Assembly: GCA_048205395.1 (NCBI GenBank)
Contig: DBEWUK010000050.1
Coordinates: 748-64,747 of the forward strand
From: Collinsella sp.
Lineage (GTDB): Bacteria > Actinomycetota > Coriobacteriia > Coriobacteriales > Coriobacteriaceae
Length of the DNA: 64,000 nt
Direction of reading: 5' to 3'
Positions 4,439 through 29,037 of the stretch are shown in pieces; the stretch's first letter is position 1, and every line of letters starts with the position of its first letter. A program made the translations under genes and the position numbers. The notes beneath the pieces were generated by a model, which made no database searches, had not been told where the DNA came from, and worked only from the letters and a program-made list of their open reading frames with translations.

Positions 4439-5557
4439 TTAGAACCGCTCGAGAATCTCCGCGGCATTCTCTCGCAGATAGATATCTAGGTCCGGCACGG
4501 CAAACTGCACGTAGCCCCTCTGTGGAGCCTGAATAACCTCTCTTTGTAGCAGCTTAGCCCTAATAGAGCTGACCTCATTGGTCTTTTTACCCATACGTTT
4601 AGCAATCTCAGATGATTTGGACTGCTGCTTATCCTCGCACATGGCCAAAAGATATTTGATATCGTTGAGTCCAAGTCCAGAAATCGCGGGCTCGTGAACA
4701 ACATCGTGAAAACGAGCCTCTGCCAGCGCAATGCCTTCGATAACATCGCGCTCGCTCACGTTGGCACTTTTGACACGATGCAAGTTGGCGCGCTGCCAAA
4801 TGGAGTAACCGACCAGTTGCACCAAATAGGCATAGCCCTTCGTGGCCTTAGCGGCTCTCGACAGCAGATCGTCCTCTATGGTCAAACCAGTCGCTATAAA
4901 GCTATCGCCCATAGAGAGCGCTACCTCCACCTGGTTGATAGGCGCCAGATCTTCGGGGAGGGCACGACGCAAGAATGTAAGTGCCTTGCCGTTAATAAGA
5001 TCCATAACACCAGCGGGCAATCCGGCAAATGCGAGAGCAATATCGACTTTCTCCCCTATTAGAAGCTGCACAGCAGAAGCAATAGCGCGCATATCGTCAA
5101 TCGGGGCATCCTGCACCTCATCTATTGCAATAAACAGGCCCTTGGAAGACTTTGCGGCCGAGCCAAGCAACTTTCTAAGACTCGACTCTTTTGGCACAAC
5201 GTCGAATTTAGCGGAAACAAAGCCGGCATTTACGCCGACTGAAGCATTGGTCGCAAGGGAGGATTCTGCAATCTGATCCTTCAGGTCCAGCAATAGGTTG
5301 GGACCAGCAGAAACAATAGCCGTCTTCCAGCCAAGCTCTCGTGCACGATCTCTAAGATCACAGAGCAAAACAGTTTTTCCGGAACCCCTTGGCCCGGCAA
5401 CGCGCATGAGCCTCGCAGGTGCACCAATTCCCGAATTCAAACTCTCGGTAAACTCAAGGGCAATATCATCACGACCAATTATGCGCGGAGGCTCAGCGCC
5501 GGCAGTGGGACGAAACGGGTTATGGAATATTGTGGCGCTCACTTGTTTGCCTCTCAA
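4439..5557 (-). CDS. AAA/ORC-Cdc6-like (Arch_ATPase-like) NTPase with C-terminal winged-helix
   Basis: 372 aa. It has an N-terminal NPFRP...PPRIIGRDD motif, Walker A GPRGSGKT, Walker B LFIAIDEVQD, and a C-terminal wHTH-like segment SSEIAKRMGKKTNEVSSIRAKLLQREVI. The track start is TTG 5557. GTG 5542, with GAGAGG upstream, is an alternative. Confidence 0.75.
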   Translation of the reverse strand: MRGKQVSATIFHNPFRPTAGAEPPRIIGRDDIALEFTESLNSGIGAPARLMRVAGPRGSGKTVLLCDLRDRARELGWKTAIVSAGPNLLLDLKDQIAESSLATNASVGVNAGFVSAKFDVVPKESSLRKLLGSAAKSSKGLFIAIDEVQDAPIDDMRAIASAVQLLIGEKVDIALAFAGLPAGVMDLINGKALTFLRRALPEDLAPINQVEVALSMGDSFIATGLTIEDDLLSRAAKATKGYAYLVQLVGYSIWQRANLHRVKSANVSERDVIEGIALAEARFHDVVHEPAISGLGLNDIKYLLAMCEDKQQSKSSEIAKRMGKKTNEVSSIRAKLLQREVIQAPQRGYVQFAVPDLDIYLRENAAEILERF

Positions 5558-5560
5558 GGA

Positions 5561-5668
5561 AATCGATTATCGGTCAATCTTAGCTTTATTAGTTTATCGC
5601 AACTATATCGGATTATATCGAGTTGTATAAGCCTGTACAAACTTATCGTAGAAGTATCGAGCCATCGT
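5561..5668. promoter_or_regulatory. AT-rich promoter/operator region with six TATCG repeats upstream of the ATPase gene
   Basis: TATCG occurs at 5568, 5595, 5606, 5616, 5644 and 5655, plus two further ATCG(A/T). All lie directly upstream of the ATPase start. Confidence 0.35.
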
Positions 5669-5752
5669 AATGTAAACTAACAAATAGCCTAAACGCTGCC
5701 TTCTTCCCAACTCATGGCGAAGTCAAGCTGAGGGCCTTCTAACAACCATTGT

Positions 5753-8239
5753 CTAAAGCGAGAAGTACTCACTCTCGGAAGACAAGTTAGGCCCCAACCA
5801 TGGATCACCCGTCAAGAAGAGCTCCGGCCAGCGCTGCATGAACAGCGCTTGCTCGCGCTTCCAGCGGCGCAGCTTTTTCTCGTTGGCCTCTTCCCTGCCG
5901 CGCGAGGTGAACTCGTAGTGATACAGCTCGGCATAGGGCGTATAGATGGTTCGATAGCCCGCCTCCCACACGCGCAGACAAAAGTCCGCGTCGTTAAAGC
6001 CGACGGCGAATTCCTCGTCGTAGCCTCCGACCCGCTCAAATACGTCGCGTCGGACCATCTGACAGGCACCAGTTACGGCGCTAAAGTTACCGGGGCGCAC
6101 AGCGCGGGCAAGATAGCCCTCGCGCTTTGCCGAGAAGTCCTGGTTGGCATGGGCAAGTGCGCCACGCACGCCAACCAAGATGCCGGCATGTTGCACCAGA
6201 TGATCGGCAAAGTAGAGTTTGGCGCCCACCACGCCCGCATCGGGACGCTGCAGATACCCCATCATCTCTTCGATAAAGTCCGGACTTATGACCTCGGTAT
6301 CGTTGTTGAGCAGCAGCAGATAGTCGCCCCTGGCATGCTCCACGCCAAAGTTAACGATCTTGGAGTAATTGAACTCACCCGGCCAGTACACAACGTGTGC
6401 GATGCCCTTACCTTCGGATGCAGCAGTCACGCGCTCTGGCAGGGTTTCGTAATACGCAAACGTCTCCGGGGCTTTGCTGTTGTTCTCCACCAAGACGATC
6501 TCGTAATTGGCATACGTTGCCTTCTGAGCGATCGACATCACGCAGGCATCGAGCGTCTCAACGTGGTCCTTGGTGGGAATCACAATGCTCACCAGCGGCG
6601 CAGACTCCGGCAGCGCATAACGCATGTGATAGACAAACGGCGTCTCGGTCTCCTCGACCGTTCCGCAAATGCCCAGCGCGTTAAAGTGGCGCTGAAGCGC
6701 AAGGCGCCCGGCTTCAATAGCATACGGCTTACTATCGGCAGAACCGTCGGCGGTCGATCCCGGATGCACGCGCCAGTGATACAGCACATGCTCAACGTGC
6801 TCAAAGCGCGCGCCGGCTGCAAGGCAGCGGAGCGTCAGGTCGTAATCCTGGGCGCCCGCAACGTCTTCTGGGGACATACCAATGTGATCGATGAGCGCCT
6901 TCTCCACCATCAGGAAATGCGTCACGCAGTTATGGCTATAGAGCAGATCGACGTTGAGCCGTGTCTTAAAGACCGGCTGGCCCCACTCCCCCGTTTTCTG
7001 AAACATGTCCTCGTCGCAGAACAAGACCTGGGGGCGCTCGCCCTCGGCCGCCTTATTCAGCGCGGAAACATACTGGAATAACGCGTCCGGCTCCAGAATG
7101 TCGTCATGGTCCAGGAACGCGATGTAGTCGCCCGTCGCTTGCTCGATACCTGCGTTGGTGTTGACCACAATGCCGCCGTTGCCGGGCAGCCCGATGCGAC
7201 GAACGCACTCGTCGTGAGCACCTGCCGCAAGGTCGGCAACCGCGTCCCATTCGGGCGAGGCATCCATAAGGAGCAGTTCCCAGTTGTCATAGCTCTGGGA
7301 TAGCACAGAGTCCAGCAGCTCGCGCAGGTAAACCCGATCGGTCTTATAGCACGGCACCACAATGCTCACGAGCGGTCTATAGGCAAAGGCCACCGAAGTG
7401 ACACACTGGCACGCCAAATCGCCCGGCTTTGCGCGATGCTGCTCAAACCAACGTCGATAAGCTGCGTCGTCTGCACGCGCGTCCTTCATACGGTTCCAGC
7501 TGTCGTCGACCATGCCGTTGTACAGGCGACCATCCATGGCGCAAAACCCGCTCTGGATCTGCTCTGTGGGATCGCTCACAATCGCGACAAAATCTCGTAT
7601 ATCCTGAGGCATCTCAACACTCAGATACGTTTTATTGACGCGGCAACCGTTGCGCTGCGGCACATCGACCTGCGATTCAAACACATGCACGGTGACATCG
7701 ATGGCATTCATATGCGCATCGAAGATCTGGAGCTCAGGCGCGCACTGGAGGTCTCCCGCCCATGTGACCTCATAGCGCCACACGGCGCCCGAATCGGCCG
7801 GAAGATAACGGACAGCATCGATCTCGTAGCGGCCGCAGCATTCGCCACGCTGCGCATCGCGGATAAGCGCGCACAGCGCAGGCTTTGCTTTGTAGTTAAT
7901 CTTGGATTCCAGCTTGGCCACGCGGCTATCGAGGCGAATGGAGCCCAACCTTTGGCCACCGGATGCAAAAACGACATCCATCGACGAGCCATCCAAAAAC
8001 GGAAGCACCAAGACGGCGAGCTCGTGCTCGTAACCGGAAACGAAAGGACAAAGCGCCAGCACACGGCCATGATCGACCGGGAGCACAAGCGACGGCACAC
8101 AAGAACCGCTCGTAGTCGCATGGGCAAACGCCTGAGAACCCTCCCGCTCGATAAGCGCGGCGACATCCTGACCGGCAAAACGAAGCAGTACAAACAGACG
8201 GCCCTGACTGCGGCAAAGTGCCAAACGTTTGATACTCAT
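5753..8239 (-). CDS. glycosyltransferase with two GT2 (GT-A) domains and a ~290-aa N-terminal domain of unknown function
   Basis: 828 aa with two GT2 signatures: LVSIVVPCYKTDRVYLRELLDSVLSQSY...FLDHDD and LVSIVIPTKDHVETLDACVMSI...LLNNDTE. The C-terminal part reads GFNDADFCLRVWEAGYR. The start ATG directly abuts the upstream stop. Confidence 0.85.
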   Translation of the reverse strand: MSIKRLALCRSQGRLFVLLRFAGQDVAALIEREGSQAFAHATTSGSCVPSLVLPVDHGRVLALCPFVSGYEHELAVLVLPFLDGSSMDVVFASGGQRLGSIRLDSRVAKLESKINYKAKPALCALIRDAQRGECCGRYEIDAVRYLPADSGAVWRYEVTWAGDLQCAPELQIFDAHMNAIDVTVHVFESQVDVPQRNGCRVNKTYLSVEMPQDIRDFVAIVSDPTEQIQSGFCAMDGRLYNGMVDDSWNRMKDARADDAAYRRWFEQHRAKPGDLACQCVTSVAFAYRPLVSIVVPCYKTDRVYLRELLDSVLSQSYDNWELLLMDASPEWDAVADLAAGAHDECVRRIGLPGNGGIVVNTNAGIEQATGDYIAFLDHDDILEPDALFQYVSALNKAAEGERPQVLFCDEDMFQKTGEWGQPVFKTRLNVDLLYSHNCVTHFLMVEKALIDHIGMSPEDVAGAQDYDLTLRCLAAGARFEHVEHVLYHWRVHPGSTADGSADSKPYAIEAGRLALQRHFNALGICGTVEETETPFVYHMRYALPESAPLVSIVIPTKDHVETLDACVMSIAQKATYANYEIVLVENNSKAPETFAYYETLPERVTAASEGKGIAHVVYWPGEFNYSKIVNFGVEHARGDYLLLLNNDTEVISPDFIEEMMGYLQRPDAGVVGAKLYFADHLVQHAGILVGVRGALAHANQDFSAKREGYLARAVRPGNFSAVTGACQMVRRDVFERVGGYDEEFAVGFNDADFCLRVWEAGYRTIYTPYAELYHYEFTSRGREEANEKKLRRWKREQALFMQRWPELFLTGDPWLGPNLSSESEYFSL

Positions 8240-9313
8240 CTACACTTCTCGCTTTCCCAGGGCGTTCGCTGCCATGCGTTTGCAGGCACCCAGGCGCCCA
8301 AACCTCAAGACGTCGTAATCGAACATGAGCTTTTTGCACAAACGAGCAGCAGGGGCCTTACCGATAAGTGCCGCGCGCACCATGGCGGCAACCGAAGGAG
8401 CACATTGTGCGAGCGCAGCATCGTTGTCCACGGCAGAACCGTTAAGCGCCGCGGCAACGGCAGCAAACACTTTGCCGCAGTCCGAACCCAGCAGCCTGAG
8501 CGCGTCGTACAGCACCAGATCGCACAGGAAATATGCCAGGTCATCGGCATGTTGAGCATCGAGACCGTCGCGCTGCCAGTCAGCCAGCACCGCGGAGTAA
8601 ATCTTCACGTGCTCCAGCAGGCGCGTCTCGTCGTCATAGCGCATGGTGTCCATGAGCGAGCCCTTGCGCGCCACGCGGTAGTCGTACAGCTTGTTCGAAA
8701 TAAGCGCGGTCTTGCGCGAGCGACCGTACACGGCAAAATCGAAGACCTGGTCCTCGCCATACTTGACGGTTTCGTCGAACACGATCCCGTTGCCCAGCAA
8801 AAACTCACGCTTGCAAGCGGTGCGCCATGCAAAGGGGCGAGACGCTTCTTTAAACAGCAGGTCGGAGCTATAGCCTTCAAACGACACATCGCGCGGGCTC
8901 AGCACATAGTTAAGCCACGGATACCCTGCCTCCAGCGGATACGGATTCGCGCCAAAGGTCAAAACGTCGCAGTCCTCGCGCCCAAAGGCATCGACGATCA
9001 CACGGCATGCATCGGGCGTAAAACGGTCGTCGGAATCCAAAAACGCGACGATAGGAGCCCAGGACGCAGCGATACCCGCGTTACGGGCGCTCGACAAACC
9101 ACCGTTGGGTTTATCAATCAGCGTAAAGCGCGCGTCCTTTTCGCAATAGGCAGCCGCAATATCGCGCGAACCGTCCGGCGAGCCATCGTTGACCAGCACG
9201 CCTTCCCAATCGGGCGTGTCCTGCGCAAGCAGGGAGTCCAGGCACCAGGCCAGGCACTCCTCCACTTTATAGATGGGAACGACAACGGAAATCTTGGGAG
9301 TAGCCATAGTCAC
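8240..9313 (-). CDS. glycosyltransferase family 2
   Basis: 357 aa: ISVVVPIYKVEECLAWCLDSLLAQ...VNDGSPDGS...FLDSDD. Confidence 0.85.
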   Translation of the reverse strand: MTMATPKISVVVPIYKVEECLAWCLDSLLAQDTPDWEGVLVNDGSPDGSRDIAAAYCEKDARFTLIDKPNGGLSSARNAGIAASWAPIVAFLDSDDRFTPDACRVIVDAFGREDCDVLTFGANPYPLEAGYPWLNYVLSPRDVSFEGYSSDLLFKEASRPFAWRTACKREFLLGNGIVFDETVKYGEDQVFDFAVYGRSRKTALISNKLYDYRVARKGSLMDTMRYDDETRLLEHVKIYSAVLADWQRDGLDAQHADDLAYFLCDLVLYDALRLLGSDCGKVFAAVAAALNGSAVDNDAALAQCAPSVAAMVRAALIGKAPAARLCKKLMFDYDVLRFGRLGACKRMAANALGKREV

Positions 9314-13959: not shown

Positions 13960-15759
13960 CTACAACCGTTGGCACACCACGGACACACGCTGCCCGTCAA
14001 AGCCAAAGCCCCAGCGCATCCGCCCGACGGCGGGGCGTGGCACGCGAATATCATCGATGCCGTTGCGCTCGATTTCGAGCAGCGCCTGAACCGCTAACAG
14101 TTCTAGGCCCAGGGCATCGACGCCAGGGTCGTACATCATGTTGATCGTTATCAGCGGGCGCTCGTCGAGTATGCCGAGCGTGTCGGCCACGTCAAACACC
14201 CGACCGGTGGGAATCACCTGGATATCCCAGCGATCCGAAACGCCACTTCGCTTGGAGCTGGGATTGCAATAGCCGGGCAGTCCAAAGCAGAGCCCCTGCA
14301 GCGCCAGATGATAGGCTGTCGGCATATCTGATTGGCCCACATCGATGCCCAGATCGCCGATAGCACAGCTCAAAGCTTGCTTTACAGCGTCCTCGTCTCC
14401 ACGACACAGCCCGTCATGGAACGAGTCGATAACTCGAACGTCCTCAACGGCGCACTCAAACCATTCCAGAATTACAAGACGGAGCGCCTGACGTACTTCG
14501 TTGTTAGGCAGACGCAGGGAACGAAGGCGCACGCCGTCCTCCGAATGCCCCGTCATGTCCGTGGTAAGGAATCCAGACAGATACAGCGCAGTCCAGATAT
14601 CTTCGGGCTTGGCGGCATCGGCCTCCTCGGCATGCACATGCACCGACGCCTCAATAAACCCATGCGGCTCAAGCAAATCGAACAATGCGGACAGGCGCAT
14701 GAGATTCCAGTCACCGACGTATGCGCTCAGACGATCGGCGCAACCATACAGATCTGTCCGAACGGGCGCGACGCAACCGCGATGTGCGTAGTCCACCACA
14801 CGCTCCGGGATCGAACAATAAAAACCACCAAACAGATAACCCTCGAGCCACTCACGCGCGTCATCCAGACAGCCGTTGCGACCGATGCGATCCAACAGTA
14901 CCTGGACTTCGTCGTCCGAAAAACCGAACCATCGATCACACCAACTCGACAGCGGCGTCGCCGACCGATAGGAAACCCCACGTTGGGACAACGCAAACTC
15001 GGCAGGACCGGGGCGCTCGCCCATAAGGCACGTCAATCGCAACAAATCGCCGGCGTCGGCAATGGTGTCGAACAACATCCGGCTGAGCGACTCTAGGGAA
15101 TCCATGCTACCGTAGTCCTTAGCGTCCAAACGCTTTGGACATACCGCGTCGTAGTCGTCTATCAGAAGAACAACCTGCTCATCGAAAGCTGTCTGGAGCA
15201 GCTTAATAAGCACGCCTAGCGCCGCATCGATCTCTCTATCGCTGGCCACCCCACGCGCCGCCCTCTCGATAAGACGAACCTCACGTCTTGACAGATCAGG
15301 CGCGGCAAGCAGCGGCAGCAATCGGGCGCACTCGTGCGCGACGGCGCTGCGAATAGCCGCCGCAGCATCAGCGTCGCGCCTCACAGCGACAGCTGAAAAG
15401 TCGAGCATGATGACCGGATAACACGCGTACTCATCACGATAGCGACCGCCACCCGCCTGCCAAATCTGGGTGCAGACGAACGGGCTTCGATCCGGCCGCC
15501 GGTGATCAGGTCGTTCCAAATAGCATTTGAGCATCGACAAGTTCATGCTCTTGCCAAAACCCTTGGGTCGGCAGCAAAACGCGACGGATGCCTCACAATC
15601 CAACATATCGGCAATAAACATGGTCTTATCGACGAGTAAATACCGATTGATTGCATCGGAAAAGTCGTGAACATCAACCGGTAGAGCTGCGTTATCCGCA
15701 TGATTGAGCAACCGCGCACAAAACGCATGAGTAAAACCACAATTCACCTGTTCAGACAC
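13960..15759 (-). CDS. AAA-ATPase_like (DUF1703-type) protein with C-terminal PD-(D/E)XK (PDDEXK_9-like) domain
   Basis: ORF 13960..15855. The N-terminal block LPVDVHDFSDAINRYLLVDKTMFIADML...CRPKGFGKSMNLSML matches the PF09820-type signature (YYVDKT ... RPRRFGKS.NLSM). The C-terminus has a nuclease-like DxxI...E.K pattern (DRWDIQVIP ... INMMYD). The likely start is GTG 15759, after GGGAGAG. The start is uncertain. Confidence 0.6.
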   Translation of the reverse strand: MSEQVNCGFTHAFCARLLNHADNAALPVDVHDFSDAINRYLLVDKTMFIADMLDCEASVAFCCRPKGFGKSMNLSMLKCYLERPDHRRPDRSPFVCTQIWQAGGGRYRDEYACYPVIMLDFSAVAVRRDADAAAAIRSAVAHECARLLPLLAAPDLSRREVRLIERAARGVASDREIDAALGVLIKLLQTAFDEQVVLLIDDYDAVCPKRLDAKDYGSMDSLESLSRMLFDTIADAGDLLRLTCLMGERPGPAEFALSQRGVSYRSATPLSSWCDRWFGFSDDEVQVLLDRIGRNGCLDDAREWLEGYLFGGFYCSIPERVVDYAHRGCVAPVRTDLYGCADRLSAYVGDWNLMRLSALFDLLEPHGFIEASVHVHAEEADAAKPEDIWTALYLSGFLTTDMTGHSEDGVRLRSLRLPNNEVRQALRLVILEWFECAVEDVRVIDSFHDGLCRGDEDAVKQALSCAIGDLGIDVGQSDMPTAYHLALQGLCFGLPGYCNPSSKRSGVSDRWDIQVIPTGRVFDVADTLGILDERPLITINMMYDPGVDALGLELLAVQALLEIERNGIDDIRVPRPAVGRMRWGFGFDGQRVSVVCQRL

Positions 15760-15960: not shown

Positions 15961-17787
15961 TTACTCCTCCGAGCCATCCTCCCCAGAATTCTTCTTCTGC
16001 TGATCGAGCTTATGCTTACCGCTCACGATGGACGTAGCGCCCAGCGTAGCCAAGCTCGCACTGGCAAGGCTCGCCATCACGATCAAGTCGCCCGTCTTTG
16101 GCATATTGCCGCCAGATGACTTGGTCGTTGTAGTCGTCGTGGTTGTAGTGGTCACCGTCTTGGAGTCATTTTGATCCTGATTCTGGTTATCAGCGCCGCT
16201 CTTGTCGTCGTCTTCGGACTGTTTCTTTTCGCCCTCGGTCTTGCTCTCGTCCTTCTTCTCAGATTCAGACTTCTTATCCTCGTCCTTCTTCTGAGCGGAC
16301 TTCTCGTTCTTCTCCTCAGAGCTAGAACCCTTATCGAATTCGGTCACCTCGGAAGCCTTGTCCTTGGAGTCGTCCCTTGCGGCCTCGGTCTTTTCCGTGG
16401 AACCCTGATCAGAGTTGTCCTTGTTCTGGGCCGAGCCGTTATTGACGCCAGCCATCAGCGAAGAACCCAGCGTAGAGCCAAGCTGCTCGGAGAAAGAAGG
16501 CTTCTTGTCCGGCGAAGCAACGGGAGCGTCCGGCGCCTTATTCGAGTCGTCCTTGGAAGCATCGGAATCAGGGGTCGTGTCAGAGCCGGAGCCGTTGTTA
16601 GAGCCGGTGTCAACGGACGAATCGCTCGAGCCGGTAGATGAGTTAGAGGTGTCAGCGCCGGTCGAACCAGAAGCGTCGCTGTCCGTATTGCCGGCAGAGC
16701 TTGAAGGCGAATCGCCCGCAGCAGAGCCGTTCGAATTGGAGCCGTTCGAGGTAGAGCCGTTCGAGGTAGAGCCGTCGTTGGTAGTGCCACCAGCAGAGCC
16801 ATTACCGTCAGCATCGGTCGAGGGCGCATCCATCCTGTCATCGTTGGCATCGTCACTCGAGTCGTCATTCGAATCAGGTGTCGGCGAGGGCGCCGGTGTG
16901 GGCTCGGGCTGCACGGGCGTCGCGGCGGCAGCCTCGTCCTCAGCGATATAAACCAAGCAGTCCTTTAGCTCGTTGCGGTAGCGGTTCTTCCAGCCCTCAT
17001 GATACTGGGGTTGGCTCGAATACTTGGTCGCCACGTTATTGACCACGCTGTAGGAAAGCGCCGTCACAAACTCACGATCGGACATATCGTTGGAAAGATT
17101 CGCCCAGCGGAAAAAGTCCCTGCAGCCACCAGTGCCGCACATGTTGGTAATGCTCCACACCATGCCCTTGACGCAGTCGGCGCGGCCCGAAATATCAATA
17201 CCCAGGCCGCTCTTGAGCCACGCCTCGGTCACCGCATAGTACGAGTTGTACGCATAAGCATCTTGAAGTGCTGAGAACTCAACAGGATCGGTGTTGTACG
17301 CACCTTGGAAGGCCTCCTGCGCAATACGGCCCAACTCGGTGAGCTGACCGTTCTCGTACATGGCATTGCTCGCGTTGGAAATCTCGCTGCCGCGATCAAT
17401 CGCATCCTTGAGCATGCTGTATTTTTCGGGGCTGTAGTTGTAGACCTGCTTCATAAACGGAATGAGCGACCAGCGGCGGTCGAACTGGTAATAGCCCAAC
17501 GCGTTATAGCCGTCACCGTACGAAAAGCCCTGGTTGTAGTTACCATGGCTCTCGTACTTGGTAAAGTACTTCATCTCGGGAGTCACGTTGACAAACGAAA
17601 CGCCCTGGACCGACCTCAGCACGCCCGAGAAGGACTGCTGGGTGTAAAGGCCCTTATCGATATCGGTGGCATCCGAGGCAACGCCCGGCGTGGGCTCCTC
17701 GGCGGCGGCGGGTGCCGGCGCGGAAACGGCACCAAACGAAAGCGCCAGCGTCAGGCCCGCAACAATCGCGGAATGCTTGGGCTGCAT
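15961..17787 (-). CDS. sortase-anchored surface protein with lysozyme/transglycosylase-like N-terminal domain and S/T/D/N-rich stalk
   Basis: 608 aa.
- Signal peptide: MQPKHSAIVAGLTLALSFGAVSAPAPAAA.
- An N-terminal ~270-aa globular domain contains ESHGNYN...GYNALGYYQF, an ES...G(L/Y)xQ pattern as in SLT/lysozyme-like folds. This is a weak call.
- About 280 aa of low-complexity sequence includes a T10 run.
- C-terminal sorting signal: MPKTG, a hydrophobic stretch, then a KHK tail. Confidence 0.75.
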   Translation of the reverse strand: MQPKHSAIVAGLTLALSFGAVSAPAPAAAEEPTPGVASDATDIDKGLYTQQSFSGVLRSVQGVSFVNVTPEMKYFTKYESHGNYNQGFSYGDGYNALGYYQFDRRWSLIPFMKQVYNYSPEKYSMLKDAIDRGSEISNASNAMYENGQLTELGRIAQEAFQGAYNTDPVEFSALQDAYAYNSYYAVTEAWLKSGLGIDISGRADCVKGMVWSITNMCGTGGCRDFFRWANLSNDMSDREFVTALSYSVVNNVATKYSSQPQYHEGWKNRYRNELKDCLVYIAEDEAAAATPVQPEPTPAPSPTPDSNDDSSDDANDDRMDAPSTDADGNGSAGGTTNDGSTSNGSTSNGSNSNGSAAGDSPSSSAGNTDSDASGSTGADTSNSSTGSSDSSVDTGSNNGSGSDTTPDSDASKDDSNKAPDAPVASPDKKPSFSEQLGSTLGSSLMAGVNNGSAQNKDNSDQGSTEKTEAARDDSKDKASEVTEFDKGSSSEEKNEKSAQKKDEDKKSESEKKDESKTEGEKKQSEDDDKSGADNQNQDQNDSKTVTTTTTTTTTTKSSGGNMPKTGDLIVMASLASASLATLGATSIVSGKHKLDQQKKNSGEDGSEE

Positions 17788-18409: not shown

Positions 18410-18581
18410 AATCTTATGCACGCGGGGCAAACAAGCCTGATTATTATGTCCCACATCTAAAAAGTCGAGTGGGTTAGTCGGGTTTTCCCTTGACTAACGC
18501 CGAACCCATAGTAACTTTATTCCGAGAAGATTCCTAGGGTTTAGTACACCTATGAGTACACCATATACAGAGAGGGACAGC

Positions 18582-23400: not shown

Positions 23401-23827
23401 TCTGTACACCTCCACCACGTTTATGGAGCACAACTCGCACCCCGACTACAAGTACGAGATGGATGCCCCCACGCACGAGCACGACGGCATCAACCCCAGC
23501 TGCGGCGACGAGCTCACCTTGCAGCTGCGCGTCGAGAACGGCGTGATCGAGGAGGCCTCCTTTACCGGCCACGGCTGCGCCATCAGTCAGGCCAGCGCCG
23601 ACATCATGGCCGACCTCATCACCGGCGAGACCGTCGAGGAAGCTCGCCGCCTAGCAGAGCTCTTCCTCGCCATGATCCGCGGCGAGAAGCTCTCCGAGGA
23701 GGACCTGGAAGACCTGGACGAAGCCGCCCAGCTCCAGGACATCTCGCACATGCCCGCCCGCGTCAAATGCGCCGAGCTCGCCTGGCGCACCCTCGACGGC
23801 ATGCTCGAGGGGCGAAATAATCAGTAG
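23393..23827 (+). CDS. sufU: SufU/IscU-type Fe-S scaffold / sulfur acceptor
   Basis: 144 aa. Motifs: NPSCGDELTLQLRV, FTGHGCAISQASADIM, HMPARVKCAELAW. It overlaps the sufS stop by 8 nt. Confidence 0.85.
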   Translation: MGNLYTSTTFMEHNSHPDYKYEMDAPTHEHDGINPSCGDELTLQLRVENGVIEEASFTGHGCAISQASADIMADLITGETVEEARRLAELFLAMIRGEKLSEEDLEDLDEAAQLQDISHMPARVKCAELAWRTLDGMLEGRNNQ

Positions 23828-23856
23828 TACTTGTCCCAAATCTTAAGATTTTTGTT

Positions 23857-23892
23857 GGCCGAATCGCTTGACAAGAGTGGTTCGGCCATTTT
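23857..23892 (+). terminator. possible intrinsic terminator after sufU
   Basis: GGCCGAA-17 nt-TTCGGCC followed by ATTTT. The loop is large, so this is a weak call. Confidence 0.35.
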
Positions 23893-24702
23893 CTATTCCG
23901 AGAGCTCAGTCTGTGCCTTCACCCGCGCATAAGCGCGCACGATACGAGAGACGGTACTTTTGCCAATCCCGGTATACCGCTCAATCTGGCGCACCGTAAA
24001 ACCGGCATCGTGCAATCCAAAAATAACGGTATCGCGCTGCGCAGGCGGTGCGTCTTTAACCCCATGGAGCGGAGCCCCGAGGCTCTTCGCCAACTTGTCG
24101 GCAAAGGCGTGGCGTTCCCACTCTGTCTCTTTCATATCGCGCAGCGCCGGTTCGCCGCCGTCGGGCGTCGAAAGCGAATAGGCAATAAAGCCCTCGGCAG
24201 AACCAAAAAGCTCAAGCACGCAAGAAGGATCAGAAAATCCCCTCGCGACATCGGCCGCGTCACCGTCGTAAGCGCACAAATGCTCCGGAAAGCTGCTCCA
24301 GGGATAACGCTCAATGAGACTGATGCCCGCCTCCTGCGGATCGGCGTGAACGGAGCGAATAGCCTCCATCACCTGCCAGTCGGTATCGAGCGAGCGCCGC
24401 TCAAAACGGTTCTGGAACAGATGCCCTGTGCGCCCCGTGCGTTTATTGAACCGCCGCGCGTACGTCAAAAGCAGCCGGTGCATCGCCGCGCTCATCGCGT
24501 CCTCGTAATCTGCAAGCACCAGACGCACGTGATTGCCCATAAGGCACCAGGCGATAACCGTCACGCCCGCCTTGCGGCAGCACTCACGCATCAGCTCCAA
24601 GAACTCCCACCGGTCTTCATCGCCCTCAAAGATGAGCTGCTTGCCCGTACCGCGGGCACAGACACGGTAAAAGCCGGTAACCGTTCTCCAAACGCGCTGC
24701 AT
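23893..24702 (-). CDS. IS200-like Y1 (HUH) transposase-family protein with C-terminal HTH; catalytic motifs degenerate
   Basis: Within ORF 23893..24915. The start is ATG 24702, after GAAGGGAG. It aligns by eye to the COG1943/RayT-like family: YRVCARG, CLMGNHVRLVL (HUH becomes HVR), GHLFQNRFERR, AIRSVHADPQEAGI (family RYIHxNP becomes RSVHADP), WSSF. The C-terminal HTH reads FTVRQIERYTGIGKSTVSRIV. Confidence 0.65.
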   Translation of the reverse strand: MQRVWRTVTGFYRVCARGTGKQLIFEGDEDRWEFLELMRECCRKAGVTVIAWCLMGNHVRLVLADYEDAMSAAMHRLLLTYARRFNKRTGRTGHLFQNRFERRSLDTDWQVMEAIRSVHADPQEAGISLIERYPWSSFPEHLCAYDGDAADVARGFSDPSCVLELFGSAEGFIAYSLSTPDGGEPALRDMKETEWERHAFADKLAKSLGAPLHGVKDAPPAQRDTVIFGLHDAGFTVRQIERYTGIGKSTVSRIVRAYARVKAQTELSE

Positions 24703-25105
24703 GGCGCTCCCTTCGCCGGGATCTGCTTGCCATCCAATACAGCACGATTGAAGCGTGCCATCAAAACATTCACGCAAAACAATTCGCTCGCGCGGCCAAA
24801 GGCAGTAAACAGGCGGCGAACGGCACCGTTGCAACAGGTCAACCCCTGCAACGCTTACAAAAGCTGACCAAAAGCTTGCCCAAGACGGACCCCCTCTACG
24901 GAAGTGCACGACCACAGAATATAGAGTTAAACCGTTTCAATTGAAAGTTCCGCGCATCTCGCTACGAAAACTGAGCCGTTCGCCGAATATTCCGTGCATT
25001 TCGCGGTATTATAGGGGCTGCATGTCATGTCCCTTTCGAAGGGTCGCCCGGCAATCGCCAGCCACGACCCCCAGACGGGACGCCAACACGATAGAGAGGA
25101 GAGGC

Positions 25106-25840
25106 ATGCAGTACTCACAGGAAGTGGAGAACATGTGCCCCGTTGCCAAGGGTGCATACCACGGCCCCGCACCCATCCCCGAGGAGGGCAAGTGGGTCCA
25201 GGCTAAGGAGATTTCCGACATCTCCGGTCTTACGCACGGTGTGGGTTGGTGCGCACCTCAGCAGGGCGCCTGCAAGCTCACGCTGAACGTCAAGGACGGC
25301 ATCATCGAGGAGGCCCTCGTTGAGACCATCGGCTGCTCGGGCATGACCCACTCTGCCGCCATGGCTTCCGAGATCCTTCCCGGTAAGACCATCCTCGAGG
25401 CCCTCAACACCGACCTCGTCTGCGACGCCATCAACGTTGCTATGCGCGAGATCTTCCTGCAGATCGTTTACGGCCGCAGCCAGACCGCGTTCTCCGAGGG
25501 CGGCCTGCCCGTGGGCGCCTCCCTCGACGACCTCGGCAAGGGCCTTCGCTCTCAGGTCGGCACCATGTTCGGCACCAAGGCCAAGGGCGCTCGTTACCTC
25601 GAGCTCGCTCAGGGCTACGTCACCCGCATGGCTCTCAACGACAAGAACGAGATCATCGCATTCGAGTTCCTGAACCTCGGCAAGTTCACCGACGCCGTCA
25701 AGGCCGGCAAGACCCCCGAGGAGGCCATCGCTGGCGCTATGGGCCACTATGGTCAGTGGGAGAACGCTGCCAAGTACATCGACCCGCGCACCGACGAGGA
25801 GACTCACTCCGTCGCCAGCGTGTTCCCGGTTCACGAGTAG
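25106..25840 (+). CDS. NifU-N/IscU-like domain protein with ~130-aa C-terminal extension (uncharacterised)
   Basis: Within ORF 24941..25840. The start is ATG 25106, after GAGAGGAGAGG. The Cys pattern is GWCAPQQGACKL / IGCSGMTHSAAMASE / LVCDAINVA, as in IscU scaffolds. Confidence 0.7.
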   Translation: MQYSQEVENMCPVAKGAYHGPAPIPEEGKWVQAKEISDISGLTHGVGWCAPQQGACKLTLNVKDGIIEEALVETIGCSGMTHSAAMASEILPGKTILEALNTDLVCDAINVAMREIFLQIVYGRSQTAFSEGGLPVGASLDDLGKGLRSQVGTMFGTKAKGARYLELAQGYVTRMALNDKNEIIAFEFLNLGKFTDAVKAGKTPEEAIAGAMGHYGQWENAAKYIDPRTDEETHSVASVFPVHE

Positions 25841-25858
25841 AAAGGGAGGGAAATAACT

Positions 25859-26863
25859 ATGACTGTTACGTTCGAAGGTTACGAGCGCCGCGCTGACAAG
25901 ATCAACAAGTGCCTCGCCGACAACGGCATCGCCTCCCTCGAGGAAGCTCTGCAGATCTGCACCGACAAGGGCTTCAACCCGCGTGAGATCGTCAACAACA
26001 CCCAGTCCATCGCCTTCCAGAACGCCGAGTGGGCCTACACCCTCGGTTGCGCTCTCGCTGTCAAGCGTGGCGCCAAGTCCGCTTCTGAGGCTGCCGCCAT
26101 CATCGGCGAGGGCATCCAGGCCTTCACCGTTCCCGGCTCCGTCGCCGAGGACCGCAAGGTCGGTCTGGGCCACGGCAACCTGGGCGCTATGCTGCTCTCC
26201 GACGACACCGAGTGCTTCGCCTTCCTGGCCGGTCACGAGTCCTTCGCTGCCGCTGAGGGTGCTATCGGCCTGGCTCTAAACGCCAACAAGGCTCGCAAGA
26301 AGCCGCTGCGCGTCATCCTCAACGGTCTGGGCAAGGACGCTGCTCAGATCATCGCCCGCATCAACGGCTTCACCTACGTGAAGACCCAGTTCGACTACTT
26401 CACGGGCGAGCTCAAGGTCGTCGAGACCATCCCCTACTCCGATGGTCCCCGCGCCGCCGTCAACTGCTACGGCGCCGACGACGTCCGCGAGGGCGTTGCC
26501 ATCATGTGGCACGAGAACGTCGACATCTCGATCACCGGTAACTCCACCAACCCCACGCGCTTCCAGCACCCCGTCGCTGGCACCTACAAGAAGGAGCGCC
26601 TCGAGGCTGGCAAGAAGTACTTCTCCGTCGCTTCTGGTGGCGGCACTGGTCGTACCCTGCACCCGGACAACATGGGCGCCGGCCCTGCCTCTTACGGCAT
26701 GACCGACACCATGGGCCGTATGCACTCCGACGCCCAGTTCGCCGGTTCTTCCTCCGTGCCTGCGCACGTCGACATGATGGGTCTCATCGGCATGGGCAAC
26801 AACCCCATGGTCGGTGCCACCGTCGCCTGCGCTGTCGCCGTCGAGGAGGCCCTCAAGGCCTAA
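25859..26863 (+). CDS. GGGtGRT family protein (function unknown)
   Basis: 334 aa. It contains the name-giving motif SGGGTGRTLHPDNMGAGPASYGMTDTMGRMH. The RBS is AAGGGAGGGA. It starts 18 nt after the NifU-like gene. Confidence 0.75.
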   Translation: MTVTFEGYERRADKINKCLADNGIASLEEALQICTDKGFNPREIVNNTQSIAFQNAEWAYTLGCALAVKRGAKSASEAAAIIGEGIQAFTVPGSVAEDRKVGLGHGNLGAMLLSDDTECFAFLAGHESFAAAEGAIGLALNANKARKKPLRVILNGLGKDAAQIIARINGFTYVKTQFDYFTGELKVVETIPYSDGPRAAVNCYGADDVREGVAIMWHENVDISITGNSTNPTRFQHPVAGTYKKERLEAGKKYFSVASGGGTGRTLHPDNMGAGPASYGMTDTMGRMHSDAQFAGSSSVPAHVDMMGLIGMGNNPMVGATVACAVAVEEALKA

Positions 26864-26898
26864 TCGCGCCCGCGCGATGCTCATATAGTTGAGCTTTG

Positions 26899-26931
26899 GA
26901 GCCGCTACCCACCCGGGTAGCGGCTCTTTTT
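26899..26931 (+). terminator. intrinsic terminator after the GGGtGRT gene
   Basis: GAGCCGCTACCC-ACCC-GGGTAGCGGCTC followed by TTTTT. Confidence 0.7.
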
Positions 26932-27119
26932 GTTTGCGCTGTCGCAGGGTAGCTAATGCCGATATATCAGTTGGGGCGAAATACAAGATGTGATGAGATG
27001 GAGCGTCAGAGCGTCCATGACGCCCACCTGCCATATTTGCCCTTTACCGATTTGCCGAGTCTTTGCGGCCCCATTGCCGATCACCCGTGCGACAATGCGC
27101 CGGACGAGAAAGGAATCCG

Positions 27120-28646
27120 ATGGAATCGACTGATGTACTGGTAATTGGATCTGGCATTGCGGGCCTTTGTGCCGCCATCGAAGCGGCACGCACGGGTGCA
27201 ACCGTCACTGTGGCAAGCGCCGGCAAGACCATGAGTGGATCGAGCTTCTTCCCGGGTACCTGGGGCCTCGGCCTCATCGGTCCCGTCGACGAAGACGACG
27301 AGCAGGACCTCATCGACACCATCCTGGCCGTCGGCGGCGGCGTTGCCGACCCCGAACTCGTCCAAACGTTCGTCCACGGCATTCCCCAAGCGATTGACTG
27401 GCTCGAGCAAGACCTGGGCGTTGAGCTCCAGCGTCCGCAAAGCGCCAAGAGTGCTCAACAAAAGCAATTTATCCCCTGCTTTGACCACAAGACGCGCATG
27501 TGGCGCGGCCTCACCCGCAAGCCCCTTGAGGACGCTCTGACGACCTGGATCGAGTCGCTCGGCATTCGCCTGCTCCCCCGCCATGAGCTTATCGACCTTG
27601 TTGAGGACACGAACGGCAGAATAACCGGAACCGTACTCTACGACCTTACCGAAAATCGAATCGTGCCCTTTGCTGCCAAGGCCACGATCATCGCAGCCGG
27701 TGGCACAGGCGGCCTGTTCGAGCGCAGCCTTACGTCGGCTGATGTGCTCAGCTCCTCGCAGGCCATCGCACTGGCGCACGGCGCAACACTTACTAATATA
27801 GAGTTCATGCAGATGATGCCTGGCTTCATCGAGCCCAGGCGTAACTTGGTCTTCAACGAGAAAACCTGGCGCTACGTGCATGTAGACCAGCCGGTAGATA
27901 TTGCCGACGACAAGCTGGACGACCTGCTCGAGCAGCGCTCTGGATATGGTCCCTTCACGTCACGCTTGGCCTCCCGCGCTATCGATCTCGTCATCGAACA
28001 GGCAGGTGCCGAAGGCCTGGCACTCCACTACGACTTCCCCCGCGAGGATGTCCCAGAGTTTGTGCAGACCTTTGCCACCTGGCTGCAAGACGAGCACGGC
28101 ATCGCGCCGACCGACGAGATGCGCGTTGCGATGTATGCCCACGCCGCTAACGGCGGCATCAAGATCGATAAGACCGCGCACACGGGCGTTGAGGGCCTCT
28201 ACGCTTGCGGCGAGGCGACAGGCGGCATGCACGGCGCCGACCGCATTGGTGGCTTGTCAAGCGCCAACGGCATCGTGTTCGGGCGCGTCGCGGGCGCATC
28301 GGCAGCCCTTGCAGCGCAGAAGGAGCCTGAGGCAGCCCTGAAGGCGGATATCACCCTCCCCCAGTACGGCATTGCCACAACAGATGCCGAACGCCTGACA
28401 CACAGCCTTAGGCACACGATGAGCACCTATTGCATGATCAACAGGACCGAAACAGGCCTATCCGAGGCCCTGCAACAGCTTGAAAGCCTGCAAGACGAAG
28501 CCACGGCTCTAAATAAGCCACATGCCAACGACAGCGAAATCGCTGCCCTCGCCCGCCTGCAATCGCAGATTCGACTAGCACAGGAAATGGTCAAAGCCAT
28601 GCGCAAGCGAACTGAAAGCTTAGGTTCGCACTATCGAGCAGACTAA
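27120..28646 (+). CDS. FAD-dependent oxidoreductase (fumarate reductase / L-aspartate oxidase flavoprotein family)
   Basis: Within ORF 27063..28646. The start is ATG 27120, after GAAAGGAA. Motifs: DVLVIGSGIAGLCAAIEAA (dinucleotide fold) and GLYACGEATGGMHGADRIGGLSSANGIVFG. Confidence 0.8.
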   Translation: MESTDVLVIGSGIAGLCAAIEAARTGATVTVASAGKTMSGSSFFPGTWGLGLIGPVDEDDEQDLIDTILAVGGGVADPELVQTFVHGIPQAIDWLEQDLGVELQRPQSAKSAQQKQFIPCFDHKTRMWRGLTRKPLEDALTTWIESLGIRLLPRHELIDLVEDTNGRITGTVLYDLTENRIVPFAAKATIIAAGGTGGLFERSLTSADVLSSSQAIALAHGATLTNIEFMQMMPGFIEPRRNLVFNEKTWRYVHVDQPVDIADDKLDDLLEQRSGYGPFTSRLASRAIDLVIEQAGAEGLALHYDFPREDVPEFVQTFATWLQDEHGIAPTDEMRVAMYAHAANGGIKIDKTAHTGVEGLYACGEATGGMHGADRIGGLSSANGIVFGRVAGASAALAAQKEPEAALKADITLPQYGIATTDAERLTHSLRHTMSTYCMINRTETGLSEALQQLESLQDEATALNKPHANDSEIAALARLQSQIRLAQEMVKAMRKRTESLGSHYRAD

Positions 28647-28864: not shown

Positions 28865-28937
28865 TGGGCCGTCAGGGGGTCGAACCCTGGACCTTGGGAT
28901 TAAGAGTCCCCTGCTCTACCAACTGAGCTAACGACCC
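28865..28937 (-). tRNA. tRNA-Lys (anticodon CTT)
   Basis: Hand-folded 73-nt cloverleaf. Acceptor GGGTCGT/ACGGCCC, D arm GCTC-AGTTGGTA-GAGC, anticodon loop CTCTTAA, T arm CAGGG-TTCGACC-CCCTG. CCA is not encoded. Confidence 0.9.
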
Positions 28938-28959: not shown

Positions 28960-29037
28960 TGGGGTGGGTAAAGGGACTCGAACCCTCGACCTACGGGACC
29001 ACAACCCGTCGCTCTAGCCAACTGAGCTACACCCACC
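28960..29037 (-). tRNA. tRNA-His (anticodon GTG), with encoded G-1 and CCA
   Basis: Hand-folded. G-1 plus GTGGGTG/TACCCAC acceptor, anticodon stem-loop ACGGG-TTGTGGT-CCCGT, T loop TTCGAGT. The 3' end is C-CCA. Confidence 0.9.

Follow-up and report, generated by a model that had tools for sequence, protein, structure and literature searches.

A conserved two-gene module of strict anaerobes, found beside the suf operon in Collinsella, that may encode a two-subunit iron–sulfur protein

What does a pair of genes do when one resembles an iron–sulfur (Fe-S) cluster scaffold, the other belongs to the GGGtGRT family, and both lie next to an operon for Fe-S cluster assembly? The question is raised by a locus of Collinsella sp. 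(contig DBEWUK010000050.1), which we analyzed within a stretch of 64,000 nucleotides, hereafter the window. A preliminary description of this stretch read the nearness of the pair to the suf operon as the sign of a dedicated metallocluster or cofactor maturation system or, alternatively, of a cluster-dependent enzyme with its own scaffold. We find that the conserved unit is a two-gene module, and that its position beside suf is a lineage-specific accident. The explanation we favor, tentatively and at a little under an even chance, is that the two proteins are subunits of a single abundant Fe-S protein, which is probably an enzyme with a phosphorylated metabolite as its substrate.

The sequence features of the pair lie where the preliminary description had placed them, including the strong ribosome-binding sites, the 18-nt gap and the closing terminator, with sufU about 1.3 kb away and a Y1 transposase-like gene between. 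The unit is composed as follows.

25007-25105 (+), promoter-proximal region and 5' leader, with a -10-like TATTAT at 25007-25012 and RNA 5' ends at about 25020-25049
25106-25840 (+), open reading frame (ORF) of the 244-aa partner protein, from the ORF list, with a strong Shine-Dalgarno sequence, GAGAGGAGAGG, just upstream
25841-25858 (+), 18-nt spacer between the partner and GGGtGRT ORFs, holding the ribosome-binding site AAGGGAGGG of the second gene
25859-26863 (+), ORF of the 334-aa GGGtGRT protein (PF14057), with the second strong Shine-Dalgarno sequence upstream
26898-26937 (+), intrinsic terminator closing the bicistronic unit, a 13-bp GC-rich stem (26898-26927) followed by a T run

Is this pair an extension of the suf operon? 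We mapped the raw reads of a stranded RNA-seq run from the same species (run X24) to the window. Depth over the pair (25112-26939) was 5200-8400, compared with 110-280 over the suf genes, 17-48 over the Y1-like gene and 19-47 over the flavoprotein gene that follows the pair. The arginyl-tRNA synthetase gene, with a depth of about 1100, is the second-highest gene over the 51.5 kb of the window examined. In other words, RNA of the pair is about 30 times that of suf, about 200 times that of the flavoprotein gene and six to seven times that of the arginyl-tRNA synthetase gene. The partner and GGGtGRT cistrons are covered to a similar depth. On the 5' side of the pair, many fragments end at 25042-25049, and in another run a transcript contig begins at 25020. 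The 3' ends fall at 26869-26905, and depth drops by more than 99% across the terminator (from about 5200 to about 47), whose 87-nt region has a folding energy of -46 kcal/mol (z = -4.8). Transcript contigs from three further runs span just the pair, from 25020, 25045 or 25103 to 26853, 26873 or 26900. Given its own 5' end, its own terminator and a depth far above that of its neighbors, the pair is therefore transcribed on its own, as a bicistronic mRNA of very high abundance, and is read with neither suf nor the flavoprotein gene. The earlier view that the flavoprotein gene is a separate unit is thus borne out, as a terminator precedes it and it is not co-transcribed with the pair.

We place the putative promoter of the pair at the -10-like TATTAT. 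A simple scan reported no match to the sigma-70 consensus upstream of the pair, and Rfam searches over the whole window returned only tRNAs, with no riboswitch in the leader. The two ORFs share one reading frame (junction 25838-25861), and a 585-aa protein from one metagenome contig (P0029) is an exact read-through fusion of both, with TAG decoded as Gln; the fusion either occurs naturally or reflects an error in sequencing.

How far does the pairing extend? A single Collinsella query returned Collinsella only: 80 genome loci of the genus, which match the region at or close to 100% protein identity and assign the window to Collinsella aerofaciens or a very near relative. Diversity outside the genus was gathered by querying with divergent family members. 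The resulting set comprises 15 loci found by exact-protein look-up and 80 metagenome loci, with GC contents of 0.28-0.70. Of these 95 loci, 94 have a partner homologue directly upstream of the GGGtGRT gene and on its strand, at a distance of about -14 to +44 nt. In the single exception only 88 bp of sequence precede the gene, hence every one of the 94 testable loci has the partner. Look-ups starting from partner proteins found GGGtGRT immediately downstream in all three lineages tried. The proposed coupling of GGGtGRT to a NifU-like gene is therefore real and appears universal.

The surroundings of the pair follow a different pattern. In Collinsella the suf-Y1-pair-flavoprotein arrangement is conserved, with sufCBDSU adjacent in 80 of 80 loci. 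Outside the genus, none of 94 loci has suf genes within 6 kb of the pair, and in the 95-locus set suf, the Y1-like gene and the flavoprotein gene stand beside it only in the single Collinsella contig. When up to three neighbors per side were clustered, no third gene recurred beside the pair in the main clade of the family. The neighbor families that occur in three to five loci are housekeeping ones (ABC-F, GluRS, IleRS, pseudouridine synthase, MatE and integrases), and the same clustering found no recurring cysteine desulfurase, chaperone or A-type carrier. Universal pairing, combined with suf adjacency in Collinsella only, is what leads us to regard the two-gene module as the conserved unit. 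The preliminary description asked whether a NifU-like partner is constant and which third genes recur; the partner is present in every testable locus, whereas a recurring third gene in the main clade is not. The downstream flavoprotein gene, which it named along with the pair, is not co-transcribed with the pair and does not recur beside it elsewhere.

The regulatory sequences separate the pair from suf as well. A perfect palindrome, TAGTCGGGTTTTCCCTTGACTA (TAGTC-N12-GACTA), lies at 18475-18496, between the divergent Rrf2 gene and sufC. The pattern occurs nowhere else in the window, where 0.08 occurrences are expected by chance, and the site is a plausible candidate for an Rrf2/IscR-type operator of suf. 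We considered an Rrf2 operator shared by the pair and suf and rejected it, since the candidate palindrome is found at the suf promoter only. Upstream of the pair in 45 distinct loci, searches for Rex, Fur, PerR, cre, FNR/CRP and IscR sites and for de novo palindromes gave no convincing enrichment; matches resembling Rex sites are poor and scattered.

These observations bear directly on the possibility that the pair is a dedicated maturation system, building a special metallocluster or cofactor for another enzyme in cooperation with SUF. Such a role would account for the scaffold-like fold of the partner (described below), for the constant coupling of the two genes and for their location beside sufCBDSU throughout the Collinsella loci. 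Counter to this, the adjacency is absent from the 94 other loci, the pair is a separate transcript that does not share the candidate Rrf2 operator, and no client gene or desulfurase recurs nearby. The functional meaning attached to the position beside SUF is lost on the same grounds: the adjacency is confined to Collinsella, the transcript is separate and the candidate operator is not shared. The level of expression points the same way. Cells normally contain little of a maturase, and iron limitation induces Fe-S assembly systems rather than repressing them; the RNA of the pair is about 30 times that of suf, and its expression in Bacteroides thetaiotaomicron falls 11- to 12.8-fold in low iron. 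We consider a maturation system very improbable, and among the explanations weighed here it agrees least with how abundant the pair is, with the way it responds to iron and with the lack of a recurrent client or desulfurase.

Conservation of the pair is unusually strong. Among 1.84 billion representatives clustered at 50% identity, searched exhaustively, there were 1842 matches, nearly all of them fragments or mis-assemblies, and the full-length GGGtGRT members fall into two or three clusters only. Long proteins in this search that looked like fusions were frameshifted, duplicated or chimeric assemblies and were rejected as domain fusions. The Collinsella GGGtGRT protein shares 71-79% amino acid identity with other main-clade members, which include named Clostridia and a Methanobacteriaceae metagenome-assembled genome (MAG), and 50-57% with a small divergent clade. 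For the partner the corresponding values are 67-76% and 45-53%. Across species-level genomes of Collinsella, the nucleotide identity of the pair is 99.2-99.7%, compared with about 95% for the sufS, sufU, flavoprotein and aminotransferase genes of the same genomes. Per codon, the GGGtGRT gene has five to six times fewer synonymous changes than sufS, in keeping with strong codon selection on so highly expressed a gene; as the loci were picked by GGGtGRT protein similarity, the effect may be somewhat inflated. Carriers of the module are strict anaerobes from several bacterial phyla, as well as some methanogens. The locus in Collinsella is one ordinary representative of a family already catalogued, and the pairing itself has been mentioned before for Bacteroides.

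If the pair is not tied to suf, what are its two proteins? The partner falls just short of the Pfam NifU_N family (PF01592; 21.3 bits, cut-off 22) and misses the equivalog cut-offs widely, both for the families TIGR01999 and TIGR03419 (NifU_clost 26.6 versus 187.9, IscU 22.4 versus 192.4) and for SufU (18.1 versus 92.5). Its AlphaFold2 model is of moderate quality, with a mean predicted local distance difference test (pLDDT) score of 66.5. Residues 41-121 of the model match ISCU, IscU and SufU structures in Foldseek at a probability of 0.99-1.0, a target-side template-modelling score (TMt) of about 0.5 and 20-30% identity, and on this structural prediction the N-domain has the IscU fold. The preliminary description, which had called it an IscU-type domain with three cysteines, was right about the fold and wrong about the canonical cysteine set: the protein has five cysteines, of which C49, C56, C77 and C106, together with H44, are invariant across 59 diverse members, and NifU_N scores below its cut-off.

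Comparison with Escherichia coli IscU shows how far the site has changed. The GCxG cysteine C63 is kept as partner C77, the sole canonical ligand in register, and a cysteine at the start of the last helix is plausibly equivalent to IscU C106. In contrast, the partner has Gln in place of C37, has a deletion at D39 and lacks both H105 and the LPPVK chaperone motif, whereas two extra invariant cysteines (C49 and C56) flank the loop. The partner also differs from IscU and NifU scaffolds in having an extra invariant linker and a beta-rich C-domain of about 100-120 aa, and in its constant pairing with GGGtGRT, never with a cysteine desulfurase. Confidence of the model is low over the invariant stretch 123-150 (YGRSQTAF...), and the beta-rich C-terminal domain had no significant match in Foldseek or in Pfam searches at E values up to 10. 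The neighboring SufU belongs to the same fold superfamily and is encoded 1.3 kb away in Collinsella; however, the two are on different transcripts, differ about 30-fold in RNA, lie side by side in Collinsella specifically, and only SufU passes the equivalog cut-off. In IscU, D39 and the chaperone motif serve the lability and release of the cluster. Because these scaffold residues are lost and a fourth cysteine is present, the partner may hold its cluster permanently and not act as a scaffold, a suggestion drawn from the alignment. The four invariant cysteines and one histidine, together with iron-dependent expression, mark it as a putative Fe-S cluster binder.

The GGGtGRT protein is assigned to its family without ambiguity. 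It matches PF14057 over its full length (residues 5-331 on profile positions 1-327) with 631 bits against a cut-off of 27 (E = 4.6e-190). Its signature, SGGGTGRTLHPDNMGAGPASYGMTDTMGRMH, occupies residues 259-289, and within it S259-GGGTGRT-266, H268, P269 and D270 are invariant in 67 aligned members. The AlphaFold2 model is confident (pLDDT 86.2, predicted template-modelling score 0.88) and consists of a helical N-domain (8-113) and a Rossmann-like alpha/beta domain, with the motif loop 261-280 as the only segment below a pLDDT of 50. A Foldseek comparison of this model with 350,542 chains of the PDB gave no match with E below 1e-3, and the template-modelling (TM) score never exceeded 0.29. 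The weak matches are generic Rossmann-type proteins: acylating aldehyde dehydrogenases, PFK, CODH, transhydrogenase dIII and GT-B enzymes. Searching the PDB by sequence and by profile with the GGGtGRT protein returned nothing, and Pfam at E values up to 10 added nothing further. Structure prediction, which the preliminary description had proposed as a check, thus gives the expected IscU fold for the partner, while for GGGtGRT it yields a confident model without a solved relative.

The invariant residues of the family nevertheless suggest what kind of protein it may be. They lie in Gly- and Ser/Thr-rich loops that follow beta-strands (AGHES, GLGK, TGNST, SGGGTGRT-HPD and GSSSVPAH), and several His, Asp and Arg residues are invariant as well. 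Loops of this composition at strand ends typically bind phosphate groups, and judging from the model the glycine-rich loops of GGGtGRT may do so. Dihydroxyacetone kinase (DhaK) offers a motif of the same type, with the loop SGGGSGHEP: both proteins have a strand, SGGG[ST]G and then His-Pro, with 40% identity over 40 columns. We tried homology to DhaK (Dak1) as an explanation and rejected it, given an hhalign probability of 1.3% and the lack of DhaK structures among the Foldseek matches; the likeness is of motif type only. Homology to aldehyde dehydrogenases was rejected likewise, with a top Foldseek E value of 0.008 at a TM-score of about 0.2 and a root-mean-square deviation of 18 Å, and an hhalign probability of 0.1% against E. 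coli EutE.

Published data provide a view of the pair in other organisms. As the preliminary description had supposed, the GGGtGRT family is without an assigned function: we found none in the literature consulted, mentions from 2025 and 2026 still say uncharacterised, and a 2024 proteomics study and a 2025 antibody study call GGGtGRT poorly characterised. In B. thetaiotaomicron the same pair, BT0173-BT0174, is down 11- to 12.8-fold under iron deficiency, together with hcp. In Clostridium pasteurianum the protein is 7.1-fold higher with excess iron, with hydrogenase and PFOR changing in the same direction and GapN in the opposite one. Both proteins are abundant in chicken-gut and rumen metaproteomes, the pair is listed alongside rubrerythrins among commonly expressed proteins, and a monoclonal antibody raised against Segatella copri recognises GGGtGRT. 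In a 2026 preprint, transposon insertions in BT0173-4 emerged from a screen for loss of the glucose-dependent silencing of the regulator Cur, a screen that also gave pfkA insertions; the BT0173-4 effect was 2-fold, with normal growth on glucose.

Two readings of the pair draw on these expression data in particular. In the first, it would be a store or carrier of iron or Fe-S clusters, which would be held on the IscU-like subunit when iron is plentiful and passed to clients. A ferritin-like store is expected to rise with iron sufficiency, and the strong rise of the pair under those conditions, its very high abundance, its dispensability for growth in vitro, the IscU fold of the partner and the location next to suf in Collinsella would all agree with this. 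Yet the features that serve cluster lability and transfer (D39, H105 and the LPPVK site) are missing from the partner, and no cysteine desulfurase, chaperone or A-type carrier recurs nearby. A store or carrier would also leave unexplained a 334-aa Rossmann-like protein with phosphate-type loops, about 75% conserved across phyla, and the clustering with phosphoglycerate mutases described below. We therefore see a store or carrier as unlikely.

In the second, the pair would be an oxidative or nitrosative stress protein of anaerobes, comparable to rubrerythrin or the hybrid-cluster protein, with an Fe-S centre that detoxifies reactive species. Besides the joint down-regulation with hcp and the listing with rubrerythrins, single lineages lend this some color: a rubrerythrin (recognised by eye from its sequence) lies 20 nt downstream of the pair in locus L160, a rubredoxin near it in the Methanobacteriaceae MAG, Mn-catalase/CotJ upstream in L091 and L093, and a Fur-family gene beside the divergent operon in L084. 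However, each such neighbor occurs in a single lineage and none recurs, PerR and Fur boxes are not enriched upstream across the 45 loci, and neither Foldseek nor profile searches of the PDB found similarity to a known detoxifying enzyme. A role in stress defense is, in our estimate, rather improbable.

Where, then, might an enzyme of this kind act? The small divergent clade, sampled in five lineages of spore-forming Firmicutes (L081-83, L084-86, L184, L186 and L188), provides a lead. Around the pair, all five carry a true archaeal-type phosphoglycerate mutase, ApgM (the two that were scored reach 517 and 508 bits against a cut-off of 489), a His_Phos_1 protein that resembles phosphoserine phosphatases and dPGM at scores below their cut-offs, and one or two proteins of about 304-332 aa without a Pfam match. 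A Pfam search at E values up to 10 with the roughly 320-aa gene of these operons found nothing. The cluster comprises an HTH_3 regulator, ApgM, the partner, GGGtGRT, the protein of about 304-332 aa and the His_Phos_1 protein; L186 has a rearranged gene order and an additional bacterial iPGM, so that three different phosphoglycerate-mutase-type genes occur in one locus. In the main clade, locus L162 has iPGM 62 nt upstream of the pair on the same strand, and in one widespread Firmicute lineage the phosphotransacylase PduL lies 52 nt upstream. We take a link between the pair and the phosphoglycerate region of glycolysis as a lead because of this mutase clustering and the pfkA-like phenotype. As a separate observation, the proteins of about 304-332 aa in L081 and L084 have N-terminal hydrophobic stretches that resemble transmembrane helices.

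Looking across the entire analysis, we prefer to regard the pair as a two-subunit Fe-S protein because the two genes are expressed equally and at a very high level, both proteins are abundant, and adjacency is obligate and conservation extreme. The same conclusion is suggested by repression under iron limitation, by the loss of scaffold-specific residues and by a second subunit with ligand-binding loops. High and equal RNAs, abundance of both proteins and expression that rises with iron are also the reasons that the maturation reading of the preliminary description is disfavored; its other option, a cluster-dependent enzyme with its own scaffold, fits better. The two genes would encode the subunits of one abundant Fe-S complex, a self-contained module. 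In the partner, the IscU fold would have been remodelled from a transient scaffold into a permanent cluster-binding subunit, and the GGGtGRT subunit would supply the phosphate-type loops (AGHES, GLGK, TGNST, SGGGTGRT and GSSS) at its strand ends. The most conserved segments, partner 123-150 and GGGtGRT 261-280, are those that have no confident fold alone in models of the two proteins made separately, and they probably meet at the subunit interface around cluster and ligand. Most likely, the complex would work as an Fe-S-dependent enzyme whose substrate is a phosphorylated central metabolite close to the 3-/2-phosphoglycerate node in fermentative metabolism, and it would be made in bulk when iron is plentiful and dropped when it is scarce.

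A more specific version, which we offer as a doubtful possibility, is that the pair is a two-subunit Fe-S enzyme with a new catalytic fold that carries out an iron-dependent step at the triose-phosphate/phosphoglycerate node in strict anaerobes, for instance a ferredoxin-linked or dehydratase-type reaction on 3-/2-phosphoglycerate, and that iron-free isoenzymes replace it under iron limitation. Familiar cases in which two adjacent genes encode one oxygen-sensitive Fe-S enzyme of central metabolism, made by anaerobes with iron available, are the two-subunit hydro-lyases, among them L-serine dehydratase (alpha/beta) and tartrate dehydratase (TtdAB). They may serve as an analogy for how the pair works, and as nothing closer: their [4Fe-4S] cluster is ligated by three cysteines in a different fold, and no Fe-S hydro-lyase was among the Foldseek or profile-search matches of the pair.

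Several considerations weigh against the two-subunit enzyme that we favor. What the analysis shows is the operon structure, the universal pairing, the very high expression, the results on the folds and the conserved residues; complex formation, cluster binding, enzymatic function and substrate class we infer. The mutase association is solid for the small divergent clade only, which may be a specialised paralogue; in the main clade, including Collinsella, a mutase is a neighbor once in about 60-70 distinct loci, which could be chance. The phenotype in B. thetaiotaomicron is weak and could be indirect. The GGGtGRT protein has one invariant cysteine only (C203) and no recognisable catalytic signature, and its profile comparisons with DhaK and acylating aldehyde dehydrogenase were negative. 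Finally, induction in iron-replete conditions and high abundance would suit an iron or Fe-S store equally well.

The genes that flank the pair in Collinsella complete the picture of the locus. Upstream of the Y1-like gene are the Rrf2 regulator gene and the operon sufC-sufB-sufD-sufS-sufU.

23471-23827, sufU (TIGR01994), ending 1278 nt ahead of the pair
23856-23888, the suf operon's own terminator (computed), a correction to the preliminary description
23893-24915 (-), Y1_Tnp-like gene of 340 aa, between sufU and the pair
27120-28646 (+), downstream flavoprotein gene of 508 aa with FAD_binding_2 and Succ_DH_flav_C domains, its start most likely at 27120

SufU passes the TIGR01994 equivalog cut-off (135.5 versus 92.5 bits). 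The Y1-like ORF combines an IS200-like Y1 transposase domain (31.8 bits) with a C-terminal helix-turn-helix and scores below the cut-off for REP-associated tyrosine transposases. It keeps its position, at 71-99% identity, in nearly all Collinsella loci that reach there. Its transcription is weak, and it has the look of an element that is domesticated or in decay, not of an active insertion sequence. The flavoprotein is of the fumarate reductase/aspartate oxidase type by domain content and falls below every NCBIfam equivalog cut-off (NadB 165 versus 453 bits, TfrA 186 versus 718). With 86-99% amino acid identity among Collinsella genomes, its gene is the most variable of the neighborhood.

Elsewhere in the window, the RNA reads revealed several features independent of the pair. 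Two tRNA genes lie on the minus strand at 28865-28937 and 28963-29036; 486 reads of run X24 and a contig of run X9 join 28937 back to 28863, a head-to-tail junction of one tRNA that could be circularised RNA, template switching or a library artefact. About 1.2 kb at 14257-15444 has no RNA reads at 90% identity or above and may be absent or untranscribed in the sequenced strain. At 16245-16279, 33 nt are skipped by about 420 reads, which points to an in-frame length polymorphism between strains. About 134 reads link 36445 and 43172 on opposite strands and suggest either an inverted repeat or that about 6.7 kb are inverted between the strain of the window and that used for RNA-seq.

For the window itself, the lesson is that a tempting inference of guilt by association, from the neighboring suf operon, has been corrected. 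More broadly, of those gut and rumen anaerobe proteins that lack an assigned function, the pair is one of the most abundant and best conserved, with about 75% identity across phyla. Its breadth, abundance and conservation, and the lack of a structural relative, make it a good target for experiments. Should the pair be an enzyme in central fermentative metabolism, a major iron-dependent reaction is missing from the metabolic models of gut anaerobes; if it is an Fe-S store, it would be a new element of iron homeostasis in the gut. Either way, the pair would usefully mark iron status when transcriptomes and proteomes of microbiomes are studied.

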